Source: Vulcanimicrobiota bacterium
GTDB lineage: Bacteria > Vulcanimicrobiota > Xenobia > Xenobiales > JADMJV01
Assembly: GCA_050250895.1 (NCBI GenBank)
Contig: JBFWNU010000001.1
Span: 2,150,210 to 2,214,209, forward strand
Direction: 5' to 3'
DNA length: 64,000 nucleotides
This document shows, piece after piece, positions 9,505-32,393 of this stretch. How positions within the stretch are numbered: position 1 is the first letter of the stretch; each line of letters opens with the position of its first letter. Under the pieces are notes generated by a model. The model searched no databases. It saw nothing but the letters and a program-made list of their open reading frames with translations, and was not told the origin of the DNA. A program made the position numbers and the translations under genes.

Positions 9505-10410
9505 TTGCCTTGGTCGGGCCGGCGGGCCGGCGGGCCCAACCGGGGTTCACCCCGTGATTTCACGGTGTGGACAAGCTTTCAGCGTCGATTCAGGGCCGCC
9601 TGGCAAGCTGGGGGCATGATTGGTTCCGTGTCCGCATTTCGCCCCGGGCTGCCGGCCCGCACCGCCAGCAAGGCTACGGATGAACTCGAGCAGCGCATCG
9701 AGATGCTCGAGACCCTGTCTCGTTCTCGTGGGGGCAGCGAGTTGCAGGAGAAGATCAAGCAGACTCGGGCTTTACTCGCCGAGGCTCGCAAGCCCGACCT
9801 GACCTTCAGCGACCAGACGAAGACCGAGGTCCGCGACTATCTCAAGGGCAGTCAGGTACTACCCCAGGCTTTCGACACCCACCAGAACGAGCAACTCGAG
9901 GTTTTCGGCAAGCTCGTCCAACGCGGGATGCACTTCCGCCGTTCCGGTCAGGAATTGCCCCCCGATCAGGCATTTCTCGGGCTCATCGCCAAGCCTTATC
10001 ACGCCCTGGACGAGCAGATCTGTTTCCAGTGCCACCTTCCCCAGGGCATTCGTGCGGTTACCCTCAGGCCCCAATATCTGCCGGCCGTCAACTTCTTTTT
10101 GGAGCGCACCCTCGAGGGCGAGGTCTTCTATCGCAAGCCCGATGCCAAGTCGTCGATGTTCGACCCCCAGCCCAATCGCGACGGCTATGTCGAGATCAAG
10201 ACCGTAGATGATTTCGTCAGCCATTATCACGACCATCCCGAGCAAGCCGTGGTTCGCTTTGGGGGAGTTTACACCACTCGAGAGCAGATCCAGAGCGACC
10301 GCGACTACATCGCGGCGCTGGCCGCCAATCACGACAGCAATCTGATCGATGACCTGGGCGACCACCTGATGGTGGGTGGGGTCATGCTCGACAAGAACCC
10401 CGACTGGTAG
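9505..10410 (+). CDS. hypothetical protein (function unknown; convergent with the SagB gene)
   Basis: 301-aa ORF; the likely true start is the internal Met (MIGSVSAF...) at ~9616. No recognisable catalytic motif; contains CFQCH. Confidence 0.4.
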   Translation: MPWSGRRAGGPNRGSPRDFTVWTSFQRRFRAAWQAGGMIGSVSAFRPGLPARTASKATDELEQRIEMLETLSRSRGGSELQEKIKQTRALLAEARKPDLTFSDQTKTEVRDYLKGSQVLPQAFDTHQNEQLEVFGKLVQRGMHFRRSGQELPPDQAFLGLIAKPYHALDEQICFQCHLPQGIRAVTLRPQYLPAVNFFLERTLEGEVFYRKPDAKSSMFDPQPNRDGYVEIKTVDDFVSHYHDHPEQAVVRFGGVYTTREQIQSDRDYIAALAANHDSNLIDDLGDHLMVGGVMLDKNPDW

Positions 10411-10435: not shown

Positions 10436-11638
10436 CTACATCAAGGCGAACTCGGCCACCGAGCTTTCTTCTTCATAGACTGTCCCGGCCAGGCGGCAGA
10501 ACAGGTCAGAGTCGCCGTAGCCGAGGGCGCAGACCGAGAGGCCCAGGGCGGTGGCCACCAGATACATCGTTTGGAGGATGGCTCCGGCGTTCTTGAGGGC
10601 CAGCGAGTAGGCGATGGCGCTGTATTTCCAGGCCAGCGCGGGAAAGCGGGCCGCCATCGTGACCACCACCGCGGGCGGACGCTCGATACCCAGGGCCCAG
10701 GCGGCGTTGAACAGCATATCGAGGCGAGCCTGGGGGGCCGAGGAGAAGAGTTCCAGAGTGTGGTCCAGGGGATCGTAGCGGTAAAAGCCCGGCTCGAGCC
10801 CGACGCAGGCTCCCACCGTCAGATAGAGTTCTTGCTCGAAGATGGCTCCGGCGCTGGCGAAGGGGCGCAGCTTGAGGCCCGGCTCCTGGGCCCGGGCGCA
10901 GTAGTGCAGAAAGTCTCCCAGGCGTCCAAGGTCCAGGGGGGGTTGGCCGGGTTGGCGGCGGCTGCGGCGGTTGGCCAGCACCTCGTCGAGAGCTTGAGCG
11001 AGACGACCGTTGGGAGGGCCCAGAGCCAGGCGACCCTGGGGCTGGCGAGGCCGGCGCTGGGGGGGGTCGAGTCGGCCCGCAAAACGGCGGGTCGCTCCCA
11101 TGGGGTGGCGATGGCGGCCCCGTCGGGAGCGGGCGTGGAAGAACAGGTCGTGGAATTCCCAGACGGCCAGGTGAGGCGCTTCATCTTCGTCCGGCCCGGT
11201 GACGTGGAGGCCGCACTCGGCCAGCAGCTGGCAACCCCAATCCGGGACCAGCAGGGCGGGCAAAGCGCACGGGTCGAGGACCACAATCCTGGCCAGGGCC
11301 CGGGGTGACTCGATCAGCAGCAGGCGACCCTCGCGCCGGCAACAGGCAAAGCGCGACAACCGATAGGTTGCCTCGGGTTGGTAGGCCAGGGCTTGATAGT
11401 AGGGCGAGAGCAGTTGGCGGGCCAATCTTGGACCCTCGGCGGTGACCAGCACTTCTTCCAGGCAACCGTTGCGCAGCAACAGTTCGGCCCGGGTCAACAG
11501 TTCCACGGCCTGGTGGGGGGCAAGGGCGGTCAGCTGTTGACGGGTCAGGCCCTGCTCGAGGTCGGGGCTCAGTTCTGTCCATTGCCGAGGATCAGCTCCG
11601 GCAATCGCCCGCAGACGCACTTCAGACGTTGAGGTCAA
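10436..11638 (-). CDS. SagB-type FMN-dependent dehydrogenase (nitroreductase fold; TOMM azoline oxidase) with ~190-aa N-terminal extension
   Basis: C-terminal half has the nitroreductase/SagB pattern (PSAGAIFEQELYLTV...AWKYSAIAYSLALKNAGAILQTMYLVATALGLSVCALGYGDSDLF). The 5' end overlaps the upstream YcaO gene by 17 nt, indicating translational coupling. Confidence 0.8.
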   Translation of the reverse strand: MTSTSEVRLRAIAGADPRQWTELSPDLEQGLTRQQLTALAPHQAVELLTRAELLLRNGCLEEVLVTAEGPRLARQLLSPYYQALAYQPEATYRLSRFACCRREGRLLLIESPRALARIVVLDPCALPALLVPDWGCQLLAECGLHVTGPDEDEAPHLAVWEFHDLFFHARSRRGRHRHPMGATRRFAGRLDPPQRRPRQPQGRLALGPPNGRLAQALDEVLANRRSRRQPGQPPLDLGRLGDFLHYCARAQEPGLKLRPFASAGAIFEQELYLTVGACVGLEPGFYRYDPLDHTLELFSSAPQARLDMLFNAAWALGIERPPAVVVTMAARFPALAWKYSAIAYSLALKNAGAILQTMYLVATALGLSVCALGYGDSDLFCRLAGTVYEEESSVAEFALM

Positions 11639-13712
11639 CAGGGTTCACCTCGGCTTCGGGAGTGGAGGCGGTGAGCCAACCCATGGCCACCGGGATGTCG
11701 TAGAGGCGCCCCGGAGCCAGGCGACGCCAGTGGTGGCGCATGCCGGGCACCACCACTCGGGCCACGGGCAGGCCGACATCCGAGCGAGTCAGGTCGACCA
11801 CCAGCATCTCGAGCCCGCGGGCGGCTACCAGTTCGTTGATGGTGGCCAGCGGATCGGGCCAATCCGGCAGCCGCAGGTCTTGCCAGGGCCGTCGCTCGGC
11901 ACCGGGGCGAAGATAGGCCCAATCGTCTACGCACAGGTTATAAGAGCTGAGTTCGTCGCGCTCGGGCAGGCCGCGGCCGGGGCGCTGGGCCTGGGAAAGG
12001 GGTTGGGGCAGGAACTGGTTCATCTCGGTGAGGGCGCGCATGATGGCCTGGCGAGGGTCGTGGTGAGCTCCGAAAGCCAGCGTGAGCTGGTCGGGCTCGG
12101 GTGCGCGGCGGCGGCTGACGGCCACGCAGGCTGGGATGGCGAAGTCGGCGGTCACATCCAGCACCCAGAAATCGCGGTCCATCTGGTCATAGGCCCGACG
12201 CAGGCGCCCGAGATAGTCGTCATCCAGGCCGGTCAGGTCAATCTCGGGGCGGGTCAGCCGGTGATACCACCACATGGCCACGCTGTCTCGCTCGACCAGT
12301 TCGAAAAAACCCTGGACCACGGCGTCCTCGAAGCTCGCCCCGGCGGCGCAGCCGTTGGATTCACCCACTGTGTAGAGGTGGTCGGCTTCGGTGTAGCCAT
12401 AGTGGACAAAGCCCGCGGCCAGATAGCGCCAGCCTTGGTGGGTCAGCGACCAGGCCTTTACCCAACGGATTGGCTGGTTCTCGTCGAGGGGGCGGGGCAC
12501 TCGGAGCTTGGGCGAAGAAACGCGGCCGCCCCCCTGCTCGAACTGGCGCTGGCTAAAGAGCATACAATGGTTGGGATGGATGGCCCGCTCGCCCAGTTCG
12601 AGACAGCTGGCCACGCGGTGAGGCTCTTCGCCGCGCCACAGCGAGCTGTGGCGCTCGAGGGCTTCGGCCAGCGCACTGACCCGGGCCTGGGCCGCGGTGG
12701 GTCCCTTCCCCCCCGCGAAGCTCTCGCGTCGGGTCTTCCACTGCTCAAGACTTTTGGCCAGCTGAGGGCGCTGGTAGGTCGAGCGAAAGACGTGCAAATT
12801 GTGGCTCAGTAAGGGCTCGAGGCGGCTGACCAAACCGGTCAGCGGGCTGACGTGGTGGCTATAGGTTTGGTAGAAGGCCTCAGCATCGAGCTGGCGGGAT
12901 AGGTTGGCCGTGCCGAGCCGCGGCGGCCCCGGCTGGCCAGGCGCTTGTCCGCAACGGTGGCATTGCGGACGTCTTATCACGGTGTGCTCGTGACTCTGGC
13001 CGGTAGCGGTGGCGAAGGTCATCAGCTTCTCGAGTCCCGCTCCGGTGGCAGCCCGGATCAGCAACTTGTTGACCACCAGATTGTAGACCAGGGCCAGCGA
13101 GGTGGGCAGGGTTGGGGCGGGGGTCGGCCGAGAAACCACCAGGCAGCGCGGCTCGCGGTTGCGTTCGAGGCGGTGGGCCAGGCAGTGCCAGCAGGCTCCG
13201 GGCTCGCCCAGCACCGGACCCAGCCAGGCCTCGACTCCGCCGGGCTTGACCAAGAAGAAGGGGCCTTGCAATTCGCCCAGCTCTGGTTGGAGATAGTCGT
13301 CCACCAACACCACCAGGAGGCCTCCGTCGACCCCGACACTGGCTGACTTGAAGGCCTCCAGCAGTGGCTCGTCGGGTTGGCTCGAGAGATTCACCACGTT
13401 CACCGACAGGGGTGGGGGGGCGAGGTCCTGGGCCTGCCAGTACGGGTGCGTGTCGTGGTTGACCAGCAGGCTGTCGACCTTGAGTTGGACCACCGCCTCC
13501 AGCAATTGGTGCGAGGGATACTGGCTGGCGAGCGCTCGCACCAATCCGGTGAAATCGAGGCCGCCGTCGAGTAATGGCAGCAGGTCGTTGTAGACTTTAC
13601 CCTCGAGCAGACGATCGCCGCCATCGGTCAACAGTAGAACACCGGCCTGGTCTGGTAGGGGGGCCGCCGTCAGGTGAGCTTTTAGCCGCAGGGGGTGGGC
13701 TAGAAAGTCCAC
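11622..13712 (-). CDS. fused TOMM cyclodehydratase: E1/ThiF-like docking (C) domain + YcaO (D) domain
   Basis: 696 aa. The C-terminal half carries the YcaO ATP-binding signature (ESNGCAAGASFEDAVVQGFFELVERDSVAMWWYHR) and a proline-rich C-terminus typical of azoline-forming YcaOs. The N-terminal half is Rossmann-like E1-type without an obvious glycine loop, as in SagC/PatD N-domains. Begins 3 nt after the precursor ORF stop. Confidence 0.85.
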   Translation of the reverse strand: MDFLAHPLRLKAHLTAAPLPDQAGVLLLTDGGDRLLEGKVYNDLLPLLDGGLDFTGLVRALASQYPSHQLLEAVVQLKVDSLLVNHDTHPYWQAQDLAPPPLSVNVVNLSSQPDEPLLEAFKSASVGVDGGLLVVLVDDYLQPELGELQGPFFLVKPGGVEAWLGPVLGEPGACWHCLAHRLERNREPRCLVVSRPTPAPTLPTSLALVYNLVVNKLLIRAATGAGLEKLMTFATATGQSHEHTVIRRPQCHRCGQAPGQPGPPRLGTANLSRQLDAEAFYQTYSHHVSPLTGLVSRLEPLLSHNLHVFRSTYQRPQLAKSLEQWKTRRESFAGGKGPTAAQARVSALAEALERHSSLWRGEEPHRVASCLELGERAIHPNHCMLFSQRQFEQGGGRVSSPKLRVPRPLDENQPIRWVKAWSLTHQGWRYLAAGFVHYGYTEADHLYTVGESNGCAAGASFEDAVVQGFFELVERDSVAMWWYHRLTRPEIDLTGLDDDYLGRLRRAYDQMDRDFWVLDVTADFAIPACVAVSRRRAPEPDQLTLAFGAHHDPRQAIMRALTEMNQFLPQPLSQAQRPGRGLPERDELSSYNLCVDDWAYLRPGAERRPWQDLRLPDWPDPLATINELVAARGLEMLVVDLTRSDVGLPVARVVVPGMRHHWRRLAPGRLYDIPVAMGWLTASTPEAEVNPVDLNV

Positions 13713-13715
13713 CTC

Positions 13716-13943
13716 TTACGAGGCGGAATAGGTGCAGCCGCAGCTGTCGCAGCCGCCATCACAGCCGTCGGTGCCCGGACCAGCGTTGACCGCCAGGGTT
13801 TGGCGGATATCCAGTTCTCGCATGGCGGGGGTGATCCAGGGCTTTTTGCTATCGGCTGCGTCCATCTTCGCAAGTTCTTCGAAGGTGCTTAGCCTCCTTC
13901 TGGGGTTGACCGCTTGGATTGGCAAAGATACCATGCCGTCCAT
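13716..13943 (-). CDS. RiPP precursor peptide (leader + Cys/Ser/Thr/Asp-rich C-terminal core ...GTDGCDGGCDSCGCTYSAS)
   Basis: Small ORF immediately 5' of, and co-oriented with, the YcaO-SagB operon. C-terminal 19 residues contain 4 Cys, 4 Ser/Thr and 3 Asp in Gly-rich spacing, then stop. An alternative in-frame start at 13865 (MDAADSKKPWITPAMRELDIRQTLAVNAGPG...) gives a 49-aa peptide and avoids overlap with the divergent kinase gene. Confidence 0.6.
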   Translation of the reverse strand: MDGMVSLPIQAVNPRRRLSTFEELAKMDAADSKKPWITPAMRELDIRQTLAVNAGPGTDGCDGGCDSCGCTYSAS

Positions 13944-14796
13944 GGCCAGTCGCTACCGCGCCTTCGAACTCGAAATCACCTCTGAATTCCCCCTTCCAGC
14001 CGCGCCCGGCAGTGGCGACCTCGAGGCGGACGTAACCATCGTGGCGGGCCGGGTGCCCGGGAGTCTGAGGTTTCCGTCGGACACTGGTTTGTTATTTCAG
14101 GCGGCTCCCGATGAATTCTTGCTGTCGGTCGCGGGCATTGCCCGTTACTATGTCGAGGCGGGTCATCAGATCACCGTCGAGCCGGCCGCGGGCGCCAAAG
14201 CCGACGCGGTCGAGGTTTTTCTCTCGGGCTCCGCCATGGGGGCCCTATTGCATCAGCGCGGCCTGCTGGCCTTGCATGCCTCGGCGGTCGCCCTGAGAGA
14301 TATGGCCGTCGTGTTCGCTGGACCCTCGGGGGCCGGCAAATCGACCCTGGTGAGCACCCTGATAGGGCGTGGCTACGAGATCCTTTGTGACGATATCTGT
14401 GTCCTTCGCCAGGACCTGGTGTTGCCGGGTTATACCCGCCTGAGGCTCTGGAAAGATAGCCTGGAGGGATTGGGCCTCCAACCCGGGCGACGGATCCGCG
14501 AGGGTATCGAGAAGTTCGAGTTCGACCACTCGGGTCGCGCCGGCTCGCTGCCCTGTCGGCAACTGTTTTTGCTTGGCTCAGGAGAAGCCGTCATCGAGCC
14601 GGGCAGCCGTCTCCAGCATCTTATTCGCAACACCTATCGGCGCCGCTATTTGCGGGGTCTGGGCCGGCAGGAGCAACACTTTCAGGCCTGCGCCCGGCTG
14701 GCCGGTCGGCTGCCCATGGCCTGGCTCGAGCGCGGCCGCGTGTTCGGACAGCTGCCCGGGCTGCTGGAGGAATGGACGGGTGCGGCCAGGGGATGA
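13933..14796 (+). CDS. HprK C-terminal-domain-like P-loop serine kinase (RiPP-associated HPr kinase homologue)
   Basis: Walker A GPSGAGKST embedded in AVALRDMAVVFAGPSGAGKSTLVSTLIGRGYEILCDD, as in the HPr kinase/phosphorylase C-domain. The annotated ORF starts at 13732; the start is chosen at the internal Met 13933, divergent from the precursor. Confidence 0.6.
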   Translation: MPSMASRYRAFELEITSEFPLPAAPGSGDLEADVTIVAGRVPGSLRFPSDTGLLFQAAPDEFLLSVAGIARYYVEAGHQITVEPAAGAKADAVEVFLSGSAMGALLHQRGLLALHASAVALRDMAVVFAGPSGAGKSTLVSTLIGRGYEILCDDICVLRQDLVLPGYTRLRLWKDSLEGLGLQPGRRIREGIEKFEFDHSGRAGSLPCRQLFLLGSGEAVIEPGSRLQHLIRNTYRRRYLRGLGRQEQHFQACARLAGRLPMAWLERGRVFGQLPGLLEEWTGAARG

Positions 14797-15632
14797 GGCG
14801 GCTGGTCTGGCTGGCGTCTTACCCGAAGTCGGGAAACACCTGGTTTCGAGCCTTCCTGCGGGCCCTGTTCAGCGGCTCGGTCACTCTTAACGCGCTGGGC
14901 TTCGAGCACTCGGGACGGCGTCGCGACTATGACGAGCTACTGGGCATCGAGACGGCTTATCTTCACGATCATGAACTCGAGCTGCTGCGGCCGGAGGTCT
15001 ACCGGGCCAAAGCGCGCGAGTGCCCGCACCCGGCCCTGGTGGTCAAGACCCACGAGGGCTACCGCAAGCTCGGCGACGGCGGTTGCTTGTTTCCTCCCGA
15101 GTGTACTCGGGGAGTGGTCTATCTGGCCCGCAATCCTCTGGACGTGGCGGTGTCTTACGCCTTTCATCTGGAAGAGGGCGACTTCGATCAGGCTATCGCC
15201 AAGATGGGCAGCCAGCAGTCCTGGGGTATGGCTCGCGACCGCTACAGCCATCAGACCAGCCAGTTGCTGCCGGACTGGAGCACCCACGTCTCGGGCTGGC
15301 TCGACAATCACGAATTGCCGGTGCATCTGGTTCGGTATGAAGCACTGCTCGCGCAACCCGAGGCGACCTTCGCCGAGGCCCTGGCCTTTCTCGGGCTGGA
15401 GTACTCGCCGGAGCAGGTATCCCAGGCCGTCGAGTTGAGCAGCTTCGAGCGCTTGCGTGAGCAGGAGCAGCGACAGGGCTTCTGGGAGAAAATGCGAGTC
15501 GGGGTCGAGTTCTTTCGGCGCGGCCAGGCGGGCCAATGGCGTCAACACTTGAGTCCTGAGCAGAGGGACAGGGTGTTGTCCCAGCACCACAACGTGATGG
15601 CCAGACTGGGCTATCTTCCGGAGGGTGACTAG
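14772..15632 (+). CDS. PAPS-dependent sulfotransferase family protein
   Basis: 5'-phosphosulfate binding loop YPKSGNTW, followed by the RNPLDVAVSY 3'-phosphate-binding region. The alternative start at ~14793 forms an ATGA overlap with the kinase stop. Confidence 0.75.
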   Translation: MDGCGQGMRRLVWLASYPKSGNTWFRAFLRALFSGSVTLNALGFEHSGRRRDYDELLGIETAYLHDHELELLRPEVYRAKARECPHPALVVKTHEGYRKLGDGGCLFPPECTRGVVYLARNPLDVAVSYAFHLEEGDFDQAIAKMGSQQSWGMARDRYSHQTSQLLPDWSTHVSGWLDNHELPVHLVRYEALLAQPEATFAEALAFLGLEYSPEQVSQAVELSSFERLREQEQRQGFWEKMRVGVEFFRRGQAGQWRQHLSPEQRDRVLSQHHNVMARLGYLPEGD

Positions 15633-15939
15633 CCAAAGAATCGAATCACTCCCCATGGGTTTGGGTAGGGACGCCATTTTGGTGCGACATCGTCACGTGG
15701 TCTCGACCGAGCTACCGGATGGAGAGGCGGCTCTGATGGACATGCAGAGCGGGACCTACTTTCATCTCAACAGTGTGGCTAGCAGGCTGTGGCAGCTGAT
15801 CGCCGAGCCGATCTCACTGGCTCAGGTTTTGACCGCTCTCGAGGATGAGTTCGAAGTCGAAGCGGACCGCTGCCACGACGAGGTGGTCAGCCTGGTGACG
15901 CAGTGGCTCGAGCGTGGCTTGAGCCAGGTCGTCGCGTGA
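15625..15939 (+). CDS. PqqD-family protein (stand-alone RiPP recognition element, lasso-peptide B1-like)
   Basis: ~100 aa. Pattern LMDMQSGTYFHLNSVASRLWQLI...VLTALEDEFEV...VVSLVTQWLERGL typical of PqqD/RRE proteins. Overlaps neighbours on both sides (operon). Confidence 0.75.
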   Translation: MTSQRIESLPMGLGRDAILVRHRHVVSTELPDGEAALMDMQSGTYFHLNSVASRLWQLIAEPISLAQVLTALEDEFEVEADRCHDEVVSLVTQWLERGLSQVVA

Positions 15940-17687
15940 CCCTGGCTGGCTCTTCGGGTAGCCACGGAGTCTATCAGCTGGAATGGCCCGTCACCCCGTG
16001 GTGCCGGGACCGGGTCAGTTTGGTGGAGGGGCTCGAAAGCCGGGGGCTTGCGGTGGGGGGTCACGTGCGTCTGGACTATGGCAAAGAGCTGCAGGCTCGA
16101 CTGGGGCTGGCCGAGGGGACGTCGGCGGCCGAACTGGTGCTGGCCGCCTGGCGAACGCGGGGGCCCGATTGCCTGACGATGCTCTTTGGAGAATTCGCCT
16201 TTGCCGTCTATGACGGCGAGGCCCTCTGGCTGGTTCAATCCCCGTTCGTGCGCTGGCCAATCTACTACACCGAGACTGCCGAGGGCCTGGCCTTTCATTC
16301 CAGCGCCCGCGCCCTGCACCGCCTGCTGGACCGAGCACCTCGACTGCACGAGCGAGCCCTGGCCGCCTGGGCAATTCGGCAGCGTCTGGTGGAACCCAGC
16401 GATACCTTTTTCGAAGGGGTTTCGCGGGTCGAGCCGGCTGGATTGGTGAAGGTGGTCGAGGGGCGGGTGGTGAGCCGCCATTGCTGGTGGAAGCCAGTCT
16501 GGAGTCCGGCCCCGGCCGGTCGCGACCTGGCCGAGCTGGCTGCCCACCTCACCGATCAGGCCGTTCGCTCGCGGTTGGGCAGTCGACCGGTCGGGTGCTA
16601 TCTGAGCGGAGGCCTGGACTCGAGCACTCTGACGGCCCTGGCCTGCCGGGCGCTAGGGCAGCAGGGGCGCCGCCTGATAGCCTTCTCTTCGGTCTTGCCG
16701 CCCGGATACGCCGGCCCGGAGCGCGACGAGCGAGAGCCGATCGGCGTGATGGCTCGGCATTTCGAACTGGAGGTAGTCGAAGTGGTGCCCACTCGGGGTC
16801 CGACCTGCGACCTGCCGGGCCACACCGAGCTGGCCGAATCCCCCTACCTATTCCCCAAGCAATATGTCTTCGCGGCGATGCTCGAAGCGGCCCGCCGACG
16901 CGGCCTGGCCACCATTCTCGATGGCGGCTTCGGAGAGTTGACCCTCAGCCACGATGCGCCGACGGCCTTTGCTTATCTGGCTCGTCGGGGTCGCTGGCGC
17001 GAGCTGGCCGGATTGGTCCAGGCCTGGGCGCCGCGGGCCGGGCTGCCCTGGTGGAGAGTATGGTTCGCGACGGTGCTCAGGCCGCTTCTTCCAACGCGCC
17101 GAGTTCCGGCGCCCTGGCTGCCTCTGCAGGCCGACTTTGTGGCCCGCCAGGGTCTTCGCCCTCGGTTTGAAAGGCCCCGCGCCCAGGGGTGGTTGCCACC
17201 GATGGAAGGGCTGACATCGGTCCTGACCGCGGTAGGAAGCAGCGCCCTGCCGTTCTATGACCGCCATTTCGGGGTCGAGGTGCACAAGCCGTTTCTCGAC
17301 CGTCGCCTGATCGAGTTCTGCCTGACGCTCGACCCGGCCGACTTCTGGCTCGACGGCTGGCGGCGGGGGCTGGTGCGCCAAGCCATGCGCGACATCCTGC
17401 CGCGGGCCATCGTCGAGCGGACCGATCGGGGCGCTTTCGCGCCCGACTTCTTTGCGCGCTTTCGCCAGGGAGCTCCGGCCTTGCGAGCCGAGTTTGGGTC
17501 TCAGGGGCCCACCGATCTGGCCGCCCACTACTTCGACCTGGAAAGCCTGAGAAAGCTGCTTGACCAGCTCACCAGCCGTCCCGCCAGCGAGAAGTCACCC
17601 CAGGGAGCCCAGGCCAAGCAGGTTCTGCTGCGCAGCCTGGGGGGCGTCCGCTTTCTACGAAGTCTTCACTCCCAACCCGTCCAGTGA
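15903..17687 (+). CDS. asparagine synthetase (AsnB)-like PP-loop ATP-pyrophosphatase (lasso-cyclase / amidotransferase-like)
   Basis: PP-loop VGCYLSGGLDSST. N-terminal Ntn-glutaminase-like fold (GEFAFAVYDGEALWL) lacks the catalytic N-terminal Cys, as in lasso-peptide lactam synthetases. 594 aa. Confidence 0.8.
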   Translation: MARAWLEPGRRVTLAGSSGSHGVYQLEWPVTPWCRDRVSLVEGLESRGLAVGGHVRLDYGKELQARLGLAEGTSAAELVLAAWRTRGPDCLTMLFGEFAFAVYDGEALWLVQSPFVRWPIYYTETAEGLAFHSSARALHRLLDRAPRLHERALAAWAIRQRLVEPSDTFFEGVSRVEPAGLVKVVEGRVVSRHCWWKPVWSPAPAGRDLAELAAHLTDQAVRSRLGSRPVGCYLSGGLDSSTLTALACRALGQQGRRLIAFSSVLPPGYAGPERDEREPIGVMARHFELEVVEVVPTRGPTCDLPGHTELAESPYLFPKQYVFAAMLEAARRRGLATILDGGFGELTLSHDAPTAFAYLARRGRWRELAGLVQAWAPRAGLPWWRVWFATVLRPLLPTRRVPAPWLPLQADFVARQGLRPRFERPRAQGWLPPMEGLTSVLTAVGSSALPFYDRHFGVEVHKPFLDRRLIEFCLTLDPADFWLDGWRRGLVRQAMRDILPRAIVERTDRGAFAPDFFARFRQGAPALRAEFGSQGPTDLAAHYFDLESLRKLLDQLTSRPASEKSPQGAQAKQVLLRSLGGVRFLRSLHSQPVQ

Positions 17688-30986: not shown

Positions 30987-32393
30987 ATGAGTGGTTCAGT
31001 AGATAAACAGTGGACATTCGTGCGGGATTGGGTGCGACCGAATCAGGTTCGCCTCAATGCCGATCCGCGATTTGCCGGGCGTGGGGTCACGGTCGCATTC
31101 GTGGATGCAGGCTTCCATCCTCACGCCGACTTGTTGCTGCCCACCAATCGCATCAAAGCCTACTACGACGCCACTACCGAGCAAGAGCCGCTGGGCGAGC
31201 GCAAGCCCGAATGTTGGAACTGGCATGGGACCATGACCAGCGTCATCGCCTGCGGCAGCGGTCATCTGTCGGGAGGCATCTACAGCGGCCTGGCACGGCA
31301 ATCCGAGGTGGTGTTGGTCAAGGTGGCCAAGAACGGCTCGATTCGCCGCCGCAACGTGGCTCTCGGCATGAAATGGCTGCTCGAGAACCGCGAGCGCCTC
31401 GACCTGCGCGTGATCAATATCTCACTGGGCCTGGGCCAGCACGACCGCGAGTCCTCGCGCACGCTGGTCGACTACTGGGTGAAGAAGGCGGTGGACGCTG
31501 GCGTGGTGGTGGTGGTGGCGGCCGGTAATGATGGCGGTCCGGTCGAATCCCCCGCCAAAGCGGCCGAAGCCCTGACTGTGGGTGGCATCTTCGACCATGT
31601 CAACCAGCTCTATCACTTCAATCACGGCACCACTCCAGATGGTGTCCACAAGCCCGACATCCTGGCCCCGGCGGTGTTGGTGGCCTCGCCCATCCTATGG
31701 GGAACGCCCCAGCAGAAGCGGGCCGAGGCCCTGGTTCGCTTGCTCAATGACCCGAGCCTGATCAAGGAACTGTGGCGCGACGCTCAGCTTCCTCTGGTTT
31801 CGCTGAACTACAATCAAGAAGAGCTGATCTCGGAACTCCAGGGACAGATCGCCGGCCAAAAGGTGGTCTCTCCCTACTACGAGCACGCCGATGGAACTTC
31901 GGTGGCCGCTCCGCTGGTAACCTCGGTGGTGGCCCAGATGCTCGAGGCCGACCCCGGTCTGACGCCCGCTCAGGTGCGGGCCATTCTGGTCAGCACGGCT
32001 TCTCGGTTGGATCGCGTGTCGCATTATCGCCAGGGTCACGGCGTGATGCGCGCCCGTCGAGCCCTGGAAGTGGCTCTCGACCCCGAGCATCCGGTCCGGC
32101 AGGTTTCGAGTTTTGGCCCTCGCCAGGAGAACGGCAAGCTGCATTTTCTCTTTCATCACACCCAGGCTCAGGGGGTTTCCCTGGCCGGCGATTTCAACAA
32201 CTGGGATCCAAAACGGCACTCGCTAGAGAAGTCCTCGGGCGGCGTGTGGCAGACCGAGTTGGCCAGCCCTCCACCGGGGCGGTATCGCTATAAGTTTCTG
32301 GTCGACGGCCAGCGCTGGTGTGATGACCCCTGGAACGCTCACAAAGAGCCCGACGCCTGGGGCGGTCTCAATTCTATAGTACTCGTCAGCTAG
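30987..32393 (+). CDS. subtilisin-like serine protease (S8) with C-terminal CBM48/E-set (AMPK-beta glycogen-binding-like) domain
   Basis: Asp (VAFVDAGF), His (WHGTMTSV) and Ser (ADGTSVAAP) triad motifs in S8 order. C-terminal block GVSLAGDFNNWDP...YRYKFLVDGQRW typical of CBM48/E-set. Confidence 0.8.
   Translation: MSGSVDKQWTFVRDWVRPNQVRLNADPRFAGRGVTVAFVDAGFHPHADLLLPTNRIKAYYDATTEQEPLGERKPECWNWHGTMTSVIACGSGHLSGGIYSGLARQSEVVLVKVAKNGSIRRRNVALGMKWLLENRERLDLRVINISLGLGQHDRESSRTLVDYWVKKAVDAGVVVVVAAGNDGGPVESPAKAAEALTVGGIFDHVNQLYHFNHGTTPDGVHKPDILAPAVLVASPILWGTPQQKRAEALVRLLNDPSLIKELWRDAQLPLVSLNYNQEELISELQGQIAGQKVVSPYYEHADGTSVAAPLVTSVVAQMLEADPGLTPAQVRAILVSTASRLDRVSHYRQGHGVMRARRALEVALDPEHPVRQVSSFGPRQENGKLHFLFHHTQAQGVSLAGDFNNWDPKRHSLEKSSGGVWQTELASPPPGRYRYKFLVDGQRWCDDPWNAHKEPDAWGGLNSIVLVS

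Follow-up and report, generated by a model that had tools for sequence, protein, structure and literature searches.

The window described here is a stretch of 64,000 nucleotides (G+C content about 63%) from an uncultured Eremiobacterota/Vulcanimicrobiota genome (Vulcanimicrobiota bacterium, GenBank assembly GCA_050250895.1, contig JBFWNU010000001.1, positions 2,150,210 to 2,214,209). It contains a gene cluster for a peptide that is made by the ribosome and modified post-translationally (RiPP), in which the genes for a fused YcaO cyclodehydratase (11622-13712, minus strand) and a SagB/ThcOx-type dehydrogenase (10436-11638, minus strand) face a divergent operon of the lasso peptide type (13933-17687) that includes a gene for a PqqD-family RiPP recognition element (RRE). 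All three genes were confirmed by the list of open reading frames (ORFs) and by profile matches, and the YcaO, SagB and PqqD assignments are homology matches strong enough, at the sequence level, to exclude chance. Between the two operons lies a gene for a precursor peptide of 49 amino acids (aa), previously unannotated in the window. We consider it probable that a single RiPP pathway unites both enzyme sets on this one precursor, with a thiazole-decorated product of the lasso type as the likeliest outcome.

The precursor (13716-13865), MDAADSKKPWITPAMRELDIRQTL-AVNAGPGTDGCDGGCDSCGCTYSAS, is composed of the 24 aa leader MDAADSKKPWITPAMRELDIRQTL and the core AVNAGPGTD GCDGGCDSCGCTYSAS. The leader carries a WxxP motif and a Thr at position -2 (...RQT-L before AVNAGPGTD). 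A ring of nine residues, Ala1 to Asp9, is predicted for the core, followed by a tail with four Cys (GC, GC, SC and GC); the core ends in ...YSAS. The model for lasso peptides of the paeninodin family, NF033524, gives a weak but specific match (E-value 4.6e-4, 19.8 bits, cut-off 27). The precursor is conserved in two related loci, L002 and L003, and is annotated in L003 as a 49 aa gene by the NCBI gene call. Codon comparison with L003 points to purifying selection, with 14 synonymous and six nonsynonymous differences over the whole gene and seven and one, respectively, in the core. Its stop codon lies 3 nt from the start codon of the YcaO gene, and 67 bp separate it from the kinase gene at the head of the divergent operon. 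No further small ORF rich in Cys, Ser or Thr was seen between 9 and 18 kb of the window. An extended precursor ORF of 75 aa, which would have offered space for a second recognition site, was ruled out by an in-frame TAG in L003. The motif GAAGGAGG at 13893-13900 (minus strand), about 27 nt 5' of the precursor ATG, is conserved in all three related loci and is too distant from the start for normal Shine-Dalgarno spacing.

From the sequence alone, the 696 aa protein was read as a cyanobactin-type cyclodehydratase with its C and D parts fused, and this assignment holds. The YcaO profile PF02624 is matched over positions 2-325 of 325 (E-value 1.2e-85, residues 335-659), TIGR03604 reaches 237.8 bits against a cut-off of 219.25, and residues 151-295 match TIGR03882, the model of the 'TOMM precursor leader peptide-binding protein' (TOMM, thiazole/oxazole-modified microcin). 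LynD aligns from end to end (residues 20-772 with 22-693, E-value 1.7e-107, about 33% identity), TruD and MusD likewise align over the full length (E-value about 1e-107), and the AlphaFold2 (AF2) model, calculated from an alignment of 40 homologues with a mean predicted local distance difference test (pLDDT) score of 88, superimposes on substrate-bound LynD with a template modeling (TM) score of 0.90 over 754 columns. The CxxC...CxxC cysteines of the E1-like domain (C174, C177, C251 and C254) are invariant among the homologues. At the N-terminus, residues 15-79 are modeled as three strands followed by three helices (pLDDT 90-95), and this segment aligns gap-free with its relatives. The peptide-binding domain that the sequence-only reading presupposed at this place is accordingly present, as an RRE or 'peptide-clamp' fold that appears intact in the model and for which leader binding is predicted. 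A C-terminal 'NPVDL' motif was considered as a marker of hybrid clusters and dropped as its position is variable across the family, though it did point to locus L171, described below.

The N-terminal part of the dehydrogenase was first described as a long extension of about 190 aa and possibly a second recognition domain; the extension is a feature of the family, and the recognition role is doubtful. The SagB domain model TIGR03605 covers residues 237-399 of the 400 aa protein (132.9 bits, cut-off 78.4) and the Pfam Nitroreductase domain residues 287-385, while the catalytic domain starts at about residue 153; depending on the definition used, the nitroreductase core leaves out 150 to 235 residues at the N-terminus. 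The protein keeps the RRS and WKY motifs, and W337, K338, Y339 and the RRS residues are conserved across SagB homologues; Melby and co-workers are said to have described, in 2014, a functional role of the Lys-Tyr motif in azoline dehydrogenases. The closest solved structure is ThcOx, both by sequence (E-value 4e-43) and as the top Foldseek match of the structural model (pLDDT 82), over the full length (E-value 1e-24), and the N-terminus matches PF22767 'ThcOx' (E-value 7.8e-18). Relatives are typically 450-500 aa long, with PF18679, PF22767 and PF00881; PF18679 was not detected in the window protein by the Pfam scan. Compared with 63 homologues, the protein is without about 25 N-terminal residues, which form the first strands of clamp 1, and without about 21 residues inside clamp 2, which form a helix, and its clamp region is about 70 aa below the family norm. 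The sequence comparison thus points to the family-typical tandem peptide-clamp region of ThcOx, shortened here. ThcOx itself has two peptide-clamp domains, at residues 7-86 and 87-194; the second one is buried, and density for a peptide was not observed (PMC5108345). Since clamp 2 of ThcOx is buried without bound peptide, and both clamps are shortened here, a second recognition role for the N-terminus of the window dehydrogenase is doubtful.

The divergent operon encodes an HprK-like kinase, a sulfotransferase, the PqqD-family protein and an asparagine synthase-like cyclase. The kinase and sulfotransferase genes overlap by 4 nt, as do the PqqD and cyclase genes; the start codon of the kinase was assigned via the gene call in L003 and a DNA alignment. 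The best NCBIfam match of the PqqD-family protein is lasso_PqqD_Bac (55 bits, cut-off 80) and its best family match NF033536 (E-value 5.5e-15, under the curated cut-off), whereas the cyclase best matches NF033535, the lasso isopeptide cyclase model (E-value 2.9e-55, 188 bits, cut-off 525). The cyclase homologue has a PP-loop (SGGLDSS) and the N-terminus MTLAGSS, without a Cys nucleophile. Absence of the N-terminal Cys is expected of a lasso cyclase and not of a glutamine amidotransferase, and because it is missing the protein is not taken for a glutamine-dependent amidotransferase. The set of kinase, sulfotransferase, PqqD and cyclase is of the paeninodin type, in which, on sequence grounds, the PqqD protein would be the B1 chaperone. 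For paeninodin, the kinase is reported to act on the C-terminal Ser while the precursor is still linear (PMC8498205), and by analogy the kinase of the window would phosphorylate the Ser at the end of its own precursor. The stand-alone PqqD that the sequence-only reading had found surprising beside a fused YcaO is therefore real (PF05402), and the reason for it, which that reading did not state, would be that it is a lasso B1 protein sharing the precursor with the YcaO/SagB pair.

The same layout recurs in L001 (identical), in L002 (YcaO 87% identity) and in L003, a metagenome-assembled genome of Eremiobacteraeota (YcaO 80% identity). Self matches aside, the cyclase has its closest relative, P0261 (34% identity), in L008, an unrelated metagenome contig that holds the same seven families in rearranged order: cyclase, SagB, sulfotransferase, two HprK-like genes, PqqD, YcaO and precursor. 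YcaO and SagB of L008 share 40% and 44% identity with those of the window, as close as any other homologue, and 4-nt overlaps join the cyclase to the SagB gene and the PqqD to the YcaO gene. The L008 precursor has 73 aa (...SWKAPSYERLPINLTRF TAGPGTD GGCGCAGCACTGTPTSCACACACMSSGS), with a WxxP leader, Thr-2, a C-terminal Ser (...SSGS) and eight Cys in CxC repeats in its core. Beside this hybrid cluster, at 9030-11999 of L008, lie a gene for a B12-binding radical S-adenosylmethionine protein and one for a truncated metalloprotease-like protein with the motif HELFH (HExxH); the latter has no counterpart in the window and may be a tailoring enzyme or a candidate leader peptidase. A further locus, L171 (1242-7555), combines a YcaO protein 37% identical to that of the window, with the similar C-terminus 'NPADLEI', with a convergent lasso-cyclase-like fragment, a lasso-associated nucleotidyltransferase (PF14907) and two PhyH dioxygenases, on a contig too short to show a precursor.

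Two sets of control loci served for comparison. The YcaO control comprised 80 reference-genome loci among the matches listed, none with more than 40% identity and the lineage of the window not included; a ThcOx-type SagB occurs in 48 of them, while not one (0/80) has a gene for PqqD, a cyclase, a kinase or a sulfotransferase within 10 kb. The expectation that a fused cyclodehydratase normally needs no separate RRE is borne out by the same loci, as no PqqD lies within 10 kb of any of the 80 related YcaO genes listed. The asparagine synthase control comprised 80 metagenome loci found with a generic PP-loop pattern, only distant asparagine synthase relatives, and YcaO or SagB was found in none of these (0/80). 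The association of YcaO with lasso genes is therefore specific, and from the sequences compared both enzyme sets appear to be inherited together, as a unit, within a clade that is small and rare.

These observations bear on the possibility that an azole (TOMM) cluster and a lasso cluster merely lie side by side, with YcaO and SagB acting on an unseen substrate and the Cys of the precursor paired in disulfides, as class I lasso peptides have them. The two operons are transcribed separately and divergently, and the nearest relatives of each enzyme set usually stand alone, as such an arrangement would suggest. The sole precursor found, however, belongs to the operon of the YcaO gene, whose start is 3 nt away, and no second one was seen; the combination recurs at 34-44% identity with genes of both sets interleaved and overlapping in L008; and the eight Cys in CxC repeats of the L008 core are typical of azole substrates. 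We regard two independent clusters as very improbable. The claim that the leader is recognized by two enzyme sets is upheld; the lasso set and the YcaO/SagB pair share one precursor.

How one leader may serve both sets depends on the number of working RREs. The PqqD protein would not be redundant with the RRE of the YcaO protein; each enzyme set has its own leader reader. The sequence-only reading had also considered two binding sites on one leader, which is unlikely here: the leader has only 24 aa and one recognizable motif, and the two readers therefore more likely bind the same segment successively or competitively. A single working RRE, with PqqD shared by all enzymes and the YcaO RRE vestigial, or with the YcaO RRE alone needed for the azoles, appears improbable to us, though somewhat less so than two separate clusters. 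The short leader with one motif, the already degenerate clamp domains of the dehydrogenase, and the 4-nt overlap of PqqD and YcaO genes in L008, which suggests co-translation and possibly a complex, would be in keeping with it; but the YcaO RRE is complete, confidently modeled and gap-free against relatives that work without PqqD, and in the window it is the cyclase gene, rather than the YcaO gene, with which the PqqD gene is coupled.

For the pathway with two readers we infer the chemistry, the order of steps and the identity of the leader-binding RREs from the gene families as follows. YcaO and SagB, co-transcribed with the precursor, would act first: the YcaO protein would bind the leader via its own RRE and cyclodehydrate the four tail Cys, possibly also Ser or Thr, to thiazolines, which the ThcOx-like enzyme would oxidize to thiazoles. 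The kinase would phosphorylate the C-terminal Ser of the linear peptide, and the sulfotransferase may modify the C-terminal region. PqqD would next bind the same WxxP...Thr-2 leader and present the peptide for cleavage, and Asp9 would be adenylated by the asparagine synthase-like cyclase and linked to Ala1 through the N-terminus exposed by the cleavage, with the macrolactam formed last.

Several observations weigh against this proposal, above all that the step of leader removal has no evident enzyme. The canonical lasso peptidase (B2), a transglutaminase-like enzyme, needs the leader-bound RRE for its activation, and Thr-2 is invariant (PMC10885120). B2 (PF13471, MEROPS C96) was not found by Pfam in the called genes and candidate ORFs of the 64-kb window, of L001-L003 or of L008. 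An ad hoc B2 hidden Markov model, built from eight B2 proteins and run at full sensitivity, was negative in the same loci and positive in ten others. For the remainder of the window, 20 additional ORFs were examined in two Pfam scans and two B2 proteins served as tblastn queries, all with negative results. If the leader is not removed, an N-terminal macrolactam cannot form. Furthermore, no ABC (ATP-binding cassette) exporter is found in the cluster, and cyclase, PqqD and precursor all score under the curated cut-offs of the lasso NCBIfam models. Finally, a 7-residue 'DGGHR' segment is deleted in the YcaO protein of the window lineage after residue 271, in the linker before the YcaO domain; it is kept in at least 90% of 37 YcaO homologues, and also in the YcaO protein of L008.

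Clusters without B2 are not confined to the hybrid loci. At 6124-10626 of L009, genes for an HprK-like protein, PqqD, an asparagine synthase-like cyclase and a 2-oxoglutarate-Fe(II) oxygenase occur without B2; the two precursors encoded there in tandem each have a leader of the form PWSAP...T-R, an Asp8 and a Ser at the C-terminus. L047 has HprK-like and sulfotransferase genes and two copies each of cyclase and PqqD, again without B2. L009 and L047 suggest a wider B2-less clade. The only families common to all B2-less clusters (window, L008, L009 and L047) are cyclase, HprK-like protein and PqqD, with a sulfotransferase in some. A canonical relative is L014, in which kinase, sulfotransferase, PqqD, B2 and precursor genes stand in a row and the precursor, which ends in Ser, shares the WxxP...T-x form of the leader. 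The plan of Thr-2 and an acidic core residue is common to the precursors of the window, L003, L008, L009 and L014.

Three proteins were considered in connection with the missing peptidase. The 264 aa convergent neighbour of the SagB gene, from a family with 17 representative clusters among 1.84e9 proteins, was rejected as unsupported: neither Pfam nor NCBIfam models match it, none of its Cys, His, Asp or Ser residues is conserved as a catalytic residue would be, and it is absent from L008. A peptidase activity of the YcaO protein like that of MusD is unsupported as a replacement of B2, as L009 and L047 are B2-less and yet without YcaO; MusD cuts a C-terminal dipeptide and not the leader (PMC10885120). 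The only S8 peptidase, a subtilisin-like protein with a CBM48-like domain, is encoded at 30987-32393 (plus strand), some 13 kb away from the cluster and not within the conserved block, with no evidence of a link to leader removal.

A route in trans has precedents. In microcin B17 the leader peptidase is not in the cluster and TldD/E is used (PMC10885120), and pseudomycoidin, a related lasso peptide, was, according to work cited in the same review, made in vivo without leader or peptidase, which makes a trans-acting route plausible. For the cluster of the window, the possible explanations are that the peptidase gene lies at another place in the 3.9-Mb genome, that a housekeeping protease is used in the manner of microcin B17, or that the chemistry is other than lasso formation.

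The last of these would leave pathway and precursor as described and end in a product that is not a threaded lasso: another carboxylate activation on the azole peptide (for instance to an amide or ester of a side chain, or to a macrolactam that forms only once an unrelated protease has trimmed the peptide), or a peptide that retains its leader. Of the alternatives weighed here it is the most serious, though still unlikely. It would agree with the absence of B2 from the window, L008, L009 and L047 and with a cyclase score far under the cut-off of the lasso model (188 against 525 bits); B2-free trios of HprK-related kinase, PqqD and amidotransferase from other systems also have NCBIfam models of their own (TIGR04352, TIGR04353 and TIGR03108), which match more weakly here. 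The cyclase nevertheless matches the lasso cyclase model best, and not the asparagine synthase or XrtA amidotransferase models; it lacks the N-terminal Cys of a glutamine-dependent amidotransferase; all precursors of the clade keep the lasso signature of Thr-2 and an acidic core residue 8 or 9; and, following the pseudomycoidin precedent as cited in PMC10885120, a peptidase acting in trans would suffice. The lasso-type product thus stays the preferred assignment. Going beyond it, one may speculate on a natural class of azole-bearing lasso-type peptides without B2, in which the YcaO RRE and then B1 read one 24 aa leader and the N-terminus is freed by a housekeeping protease of the TldD/E type or by a cluster enzyme; this extension is put forward only tentatively. 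The features of the cluster are summarized in Table 1.

Table 1. Features of the gene cluster and their positions in the window
Feature	Position	Strand	Evidence
Precursor peptide gene, 49 aa	13716..13865	-	ORF list; NF033524 sub-threshold; conserved in L002, L003
Fused RRE/E1-like/YcaO cyclodehydratase, 696 aa	11622..13712	-	Pfam, NCBIfam, LynD alignment, AF2
RRE/winged-helix domain of the YcaO protein, about residues 8-80	nt 13473-13691	-	AF2 model
YcaO domain, residues 335-659	nt 11736-12710	-	PF02624
ThcOx-type SagB FMN (flavin mononucleotide) dehydrogenase, 400 aa	10436..11638	-	Pfam, NCBIfam, Foldseek
Reduced tandem peptide-clamp (RRE-like) region of SagB, about residues 1-150	nt 11189-11638	-	PF22767, homologue alignment
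HprK-like / ScmC-like P-loop kinase, 287 aa	13933..14796	+	Hpr_kinase_C and TIGR04352 sub-threshold; PF27840 ScmC
PAPS (3'-phosphoadenosine 5'-phosphosulfate)-type sulfotransferase, 279 aa	14793..15632	+	PF00685, E-value 8.1e-29
Stand-alone PqqD-family RRE, 94 aa, putative lasso B1 type	15655..15939 (alternative start 15625)	+	PF05402, E-value 2e-16
Asparagine synthase-like lasso cyclase homologue, 583 aa	15936..17687	+	NF033535; PF00733
Convergent neighbour, 264 aa, rare family; pathway membership only putative	9616..10410	+	kept in L001-L003

Every enzyme family of the cluster is already known; the novelty lies in how they are combined, in the leader that they appear to share and in the lack of B2. 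The cyanobactin enzymes LynD/TruD/PatD and ThcOx (PDB 4V1T, 4BS9 and 5LQ4) have the same fused RRE/E1-like/YcaO architecture and a dehydrogenase of the same type, its tandem clamps only partly kept in the window protein, and the predicted chemistry, Cys to thiazoline to thiazole, is alike. Unlike cyanobactin clusters, the conserved cluster of the window lacks the PatA/PatG proteases or macrocyclase as well as a precursor of the PatE type with its recognition sequences, the leader being of the lasso type; its dehydrogenase clamp region is about 70 aa shorter and its YcaO protein is without the DGGHR segment.

Lasso clusters of the paeninodin/pseudomycoidin type share the set of kinase, sulfotransferase, PqqD B1 and cyclase, as well as the aromatic-xxP leader motif, Thr-2, the acidic core residue 8 or 9 and the C-terminal Ser. 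Paeninodin-type clusters encode an HprK-like kinase, with sulfotransferase and nucleotidyltransferase optional. The cluster of the window differs from them by the absence of B2 and ABC exporter and by the addition of the YcaO/SagB pair and the Cys-rich tail. Linear azole peptides of the microcin B17/plantazolicin type resemble the system in the core rich in Gly-Cys and Ser-Cys, in the combination of YcaO with a SagB/McbC-type dehydrogenase and, for microcin B17, in the leader peptidase outside the cluster, whereas the cyclodehydratase of the window is fused, not a separate C/D complex, and a lasso-type ring segment with its enzyme set is added.

Thiopeptides and engineered hybrids with chimeric leaders likewise combine one precursor with enzyme sets of different RiPP classes that have their own RREs. 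Natural thiopeptides, however, use YcaO and LanB-type enzymes and not lasso enzymes, and engineered hybrid RiPPs needed concatenated leaders (Burkhart et al. 2017, as cited in PMC8498205), whereas in the window a single 24 aa leader appears to serve both sets. Full-text searches of the literature turned up neither a natural lasso peptide with azoles nor a hybrid cluster of YcaO and lasso genes, although a mention in a genome-mining survey is possible; a 2021 review of lasso tailoring lists no azole-containing lasso peptide (PMC8498205). On lasso peptides of Eremiobacterota/Vulcanimicrobiota, an uncultured phylum, nothing was found beyond one unrelated paper.

Lasso and azole peptides are among the most exploited RiPP scaffolds, and natural crosses between RiPP classes are rare. 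If the proposed pathway is correct, the cluster would be a ready-made case of two RRE systems reading one leader, and its product would be a new scaffold in which a macrolactam ring is combined with a polythiazole tail that is rigid, and with phosphate or sulfate in addition. With a cluster that is without B2, B2-independent lasso maturation becomes a question that can be tested directly.

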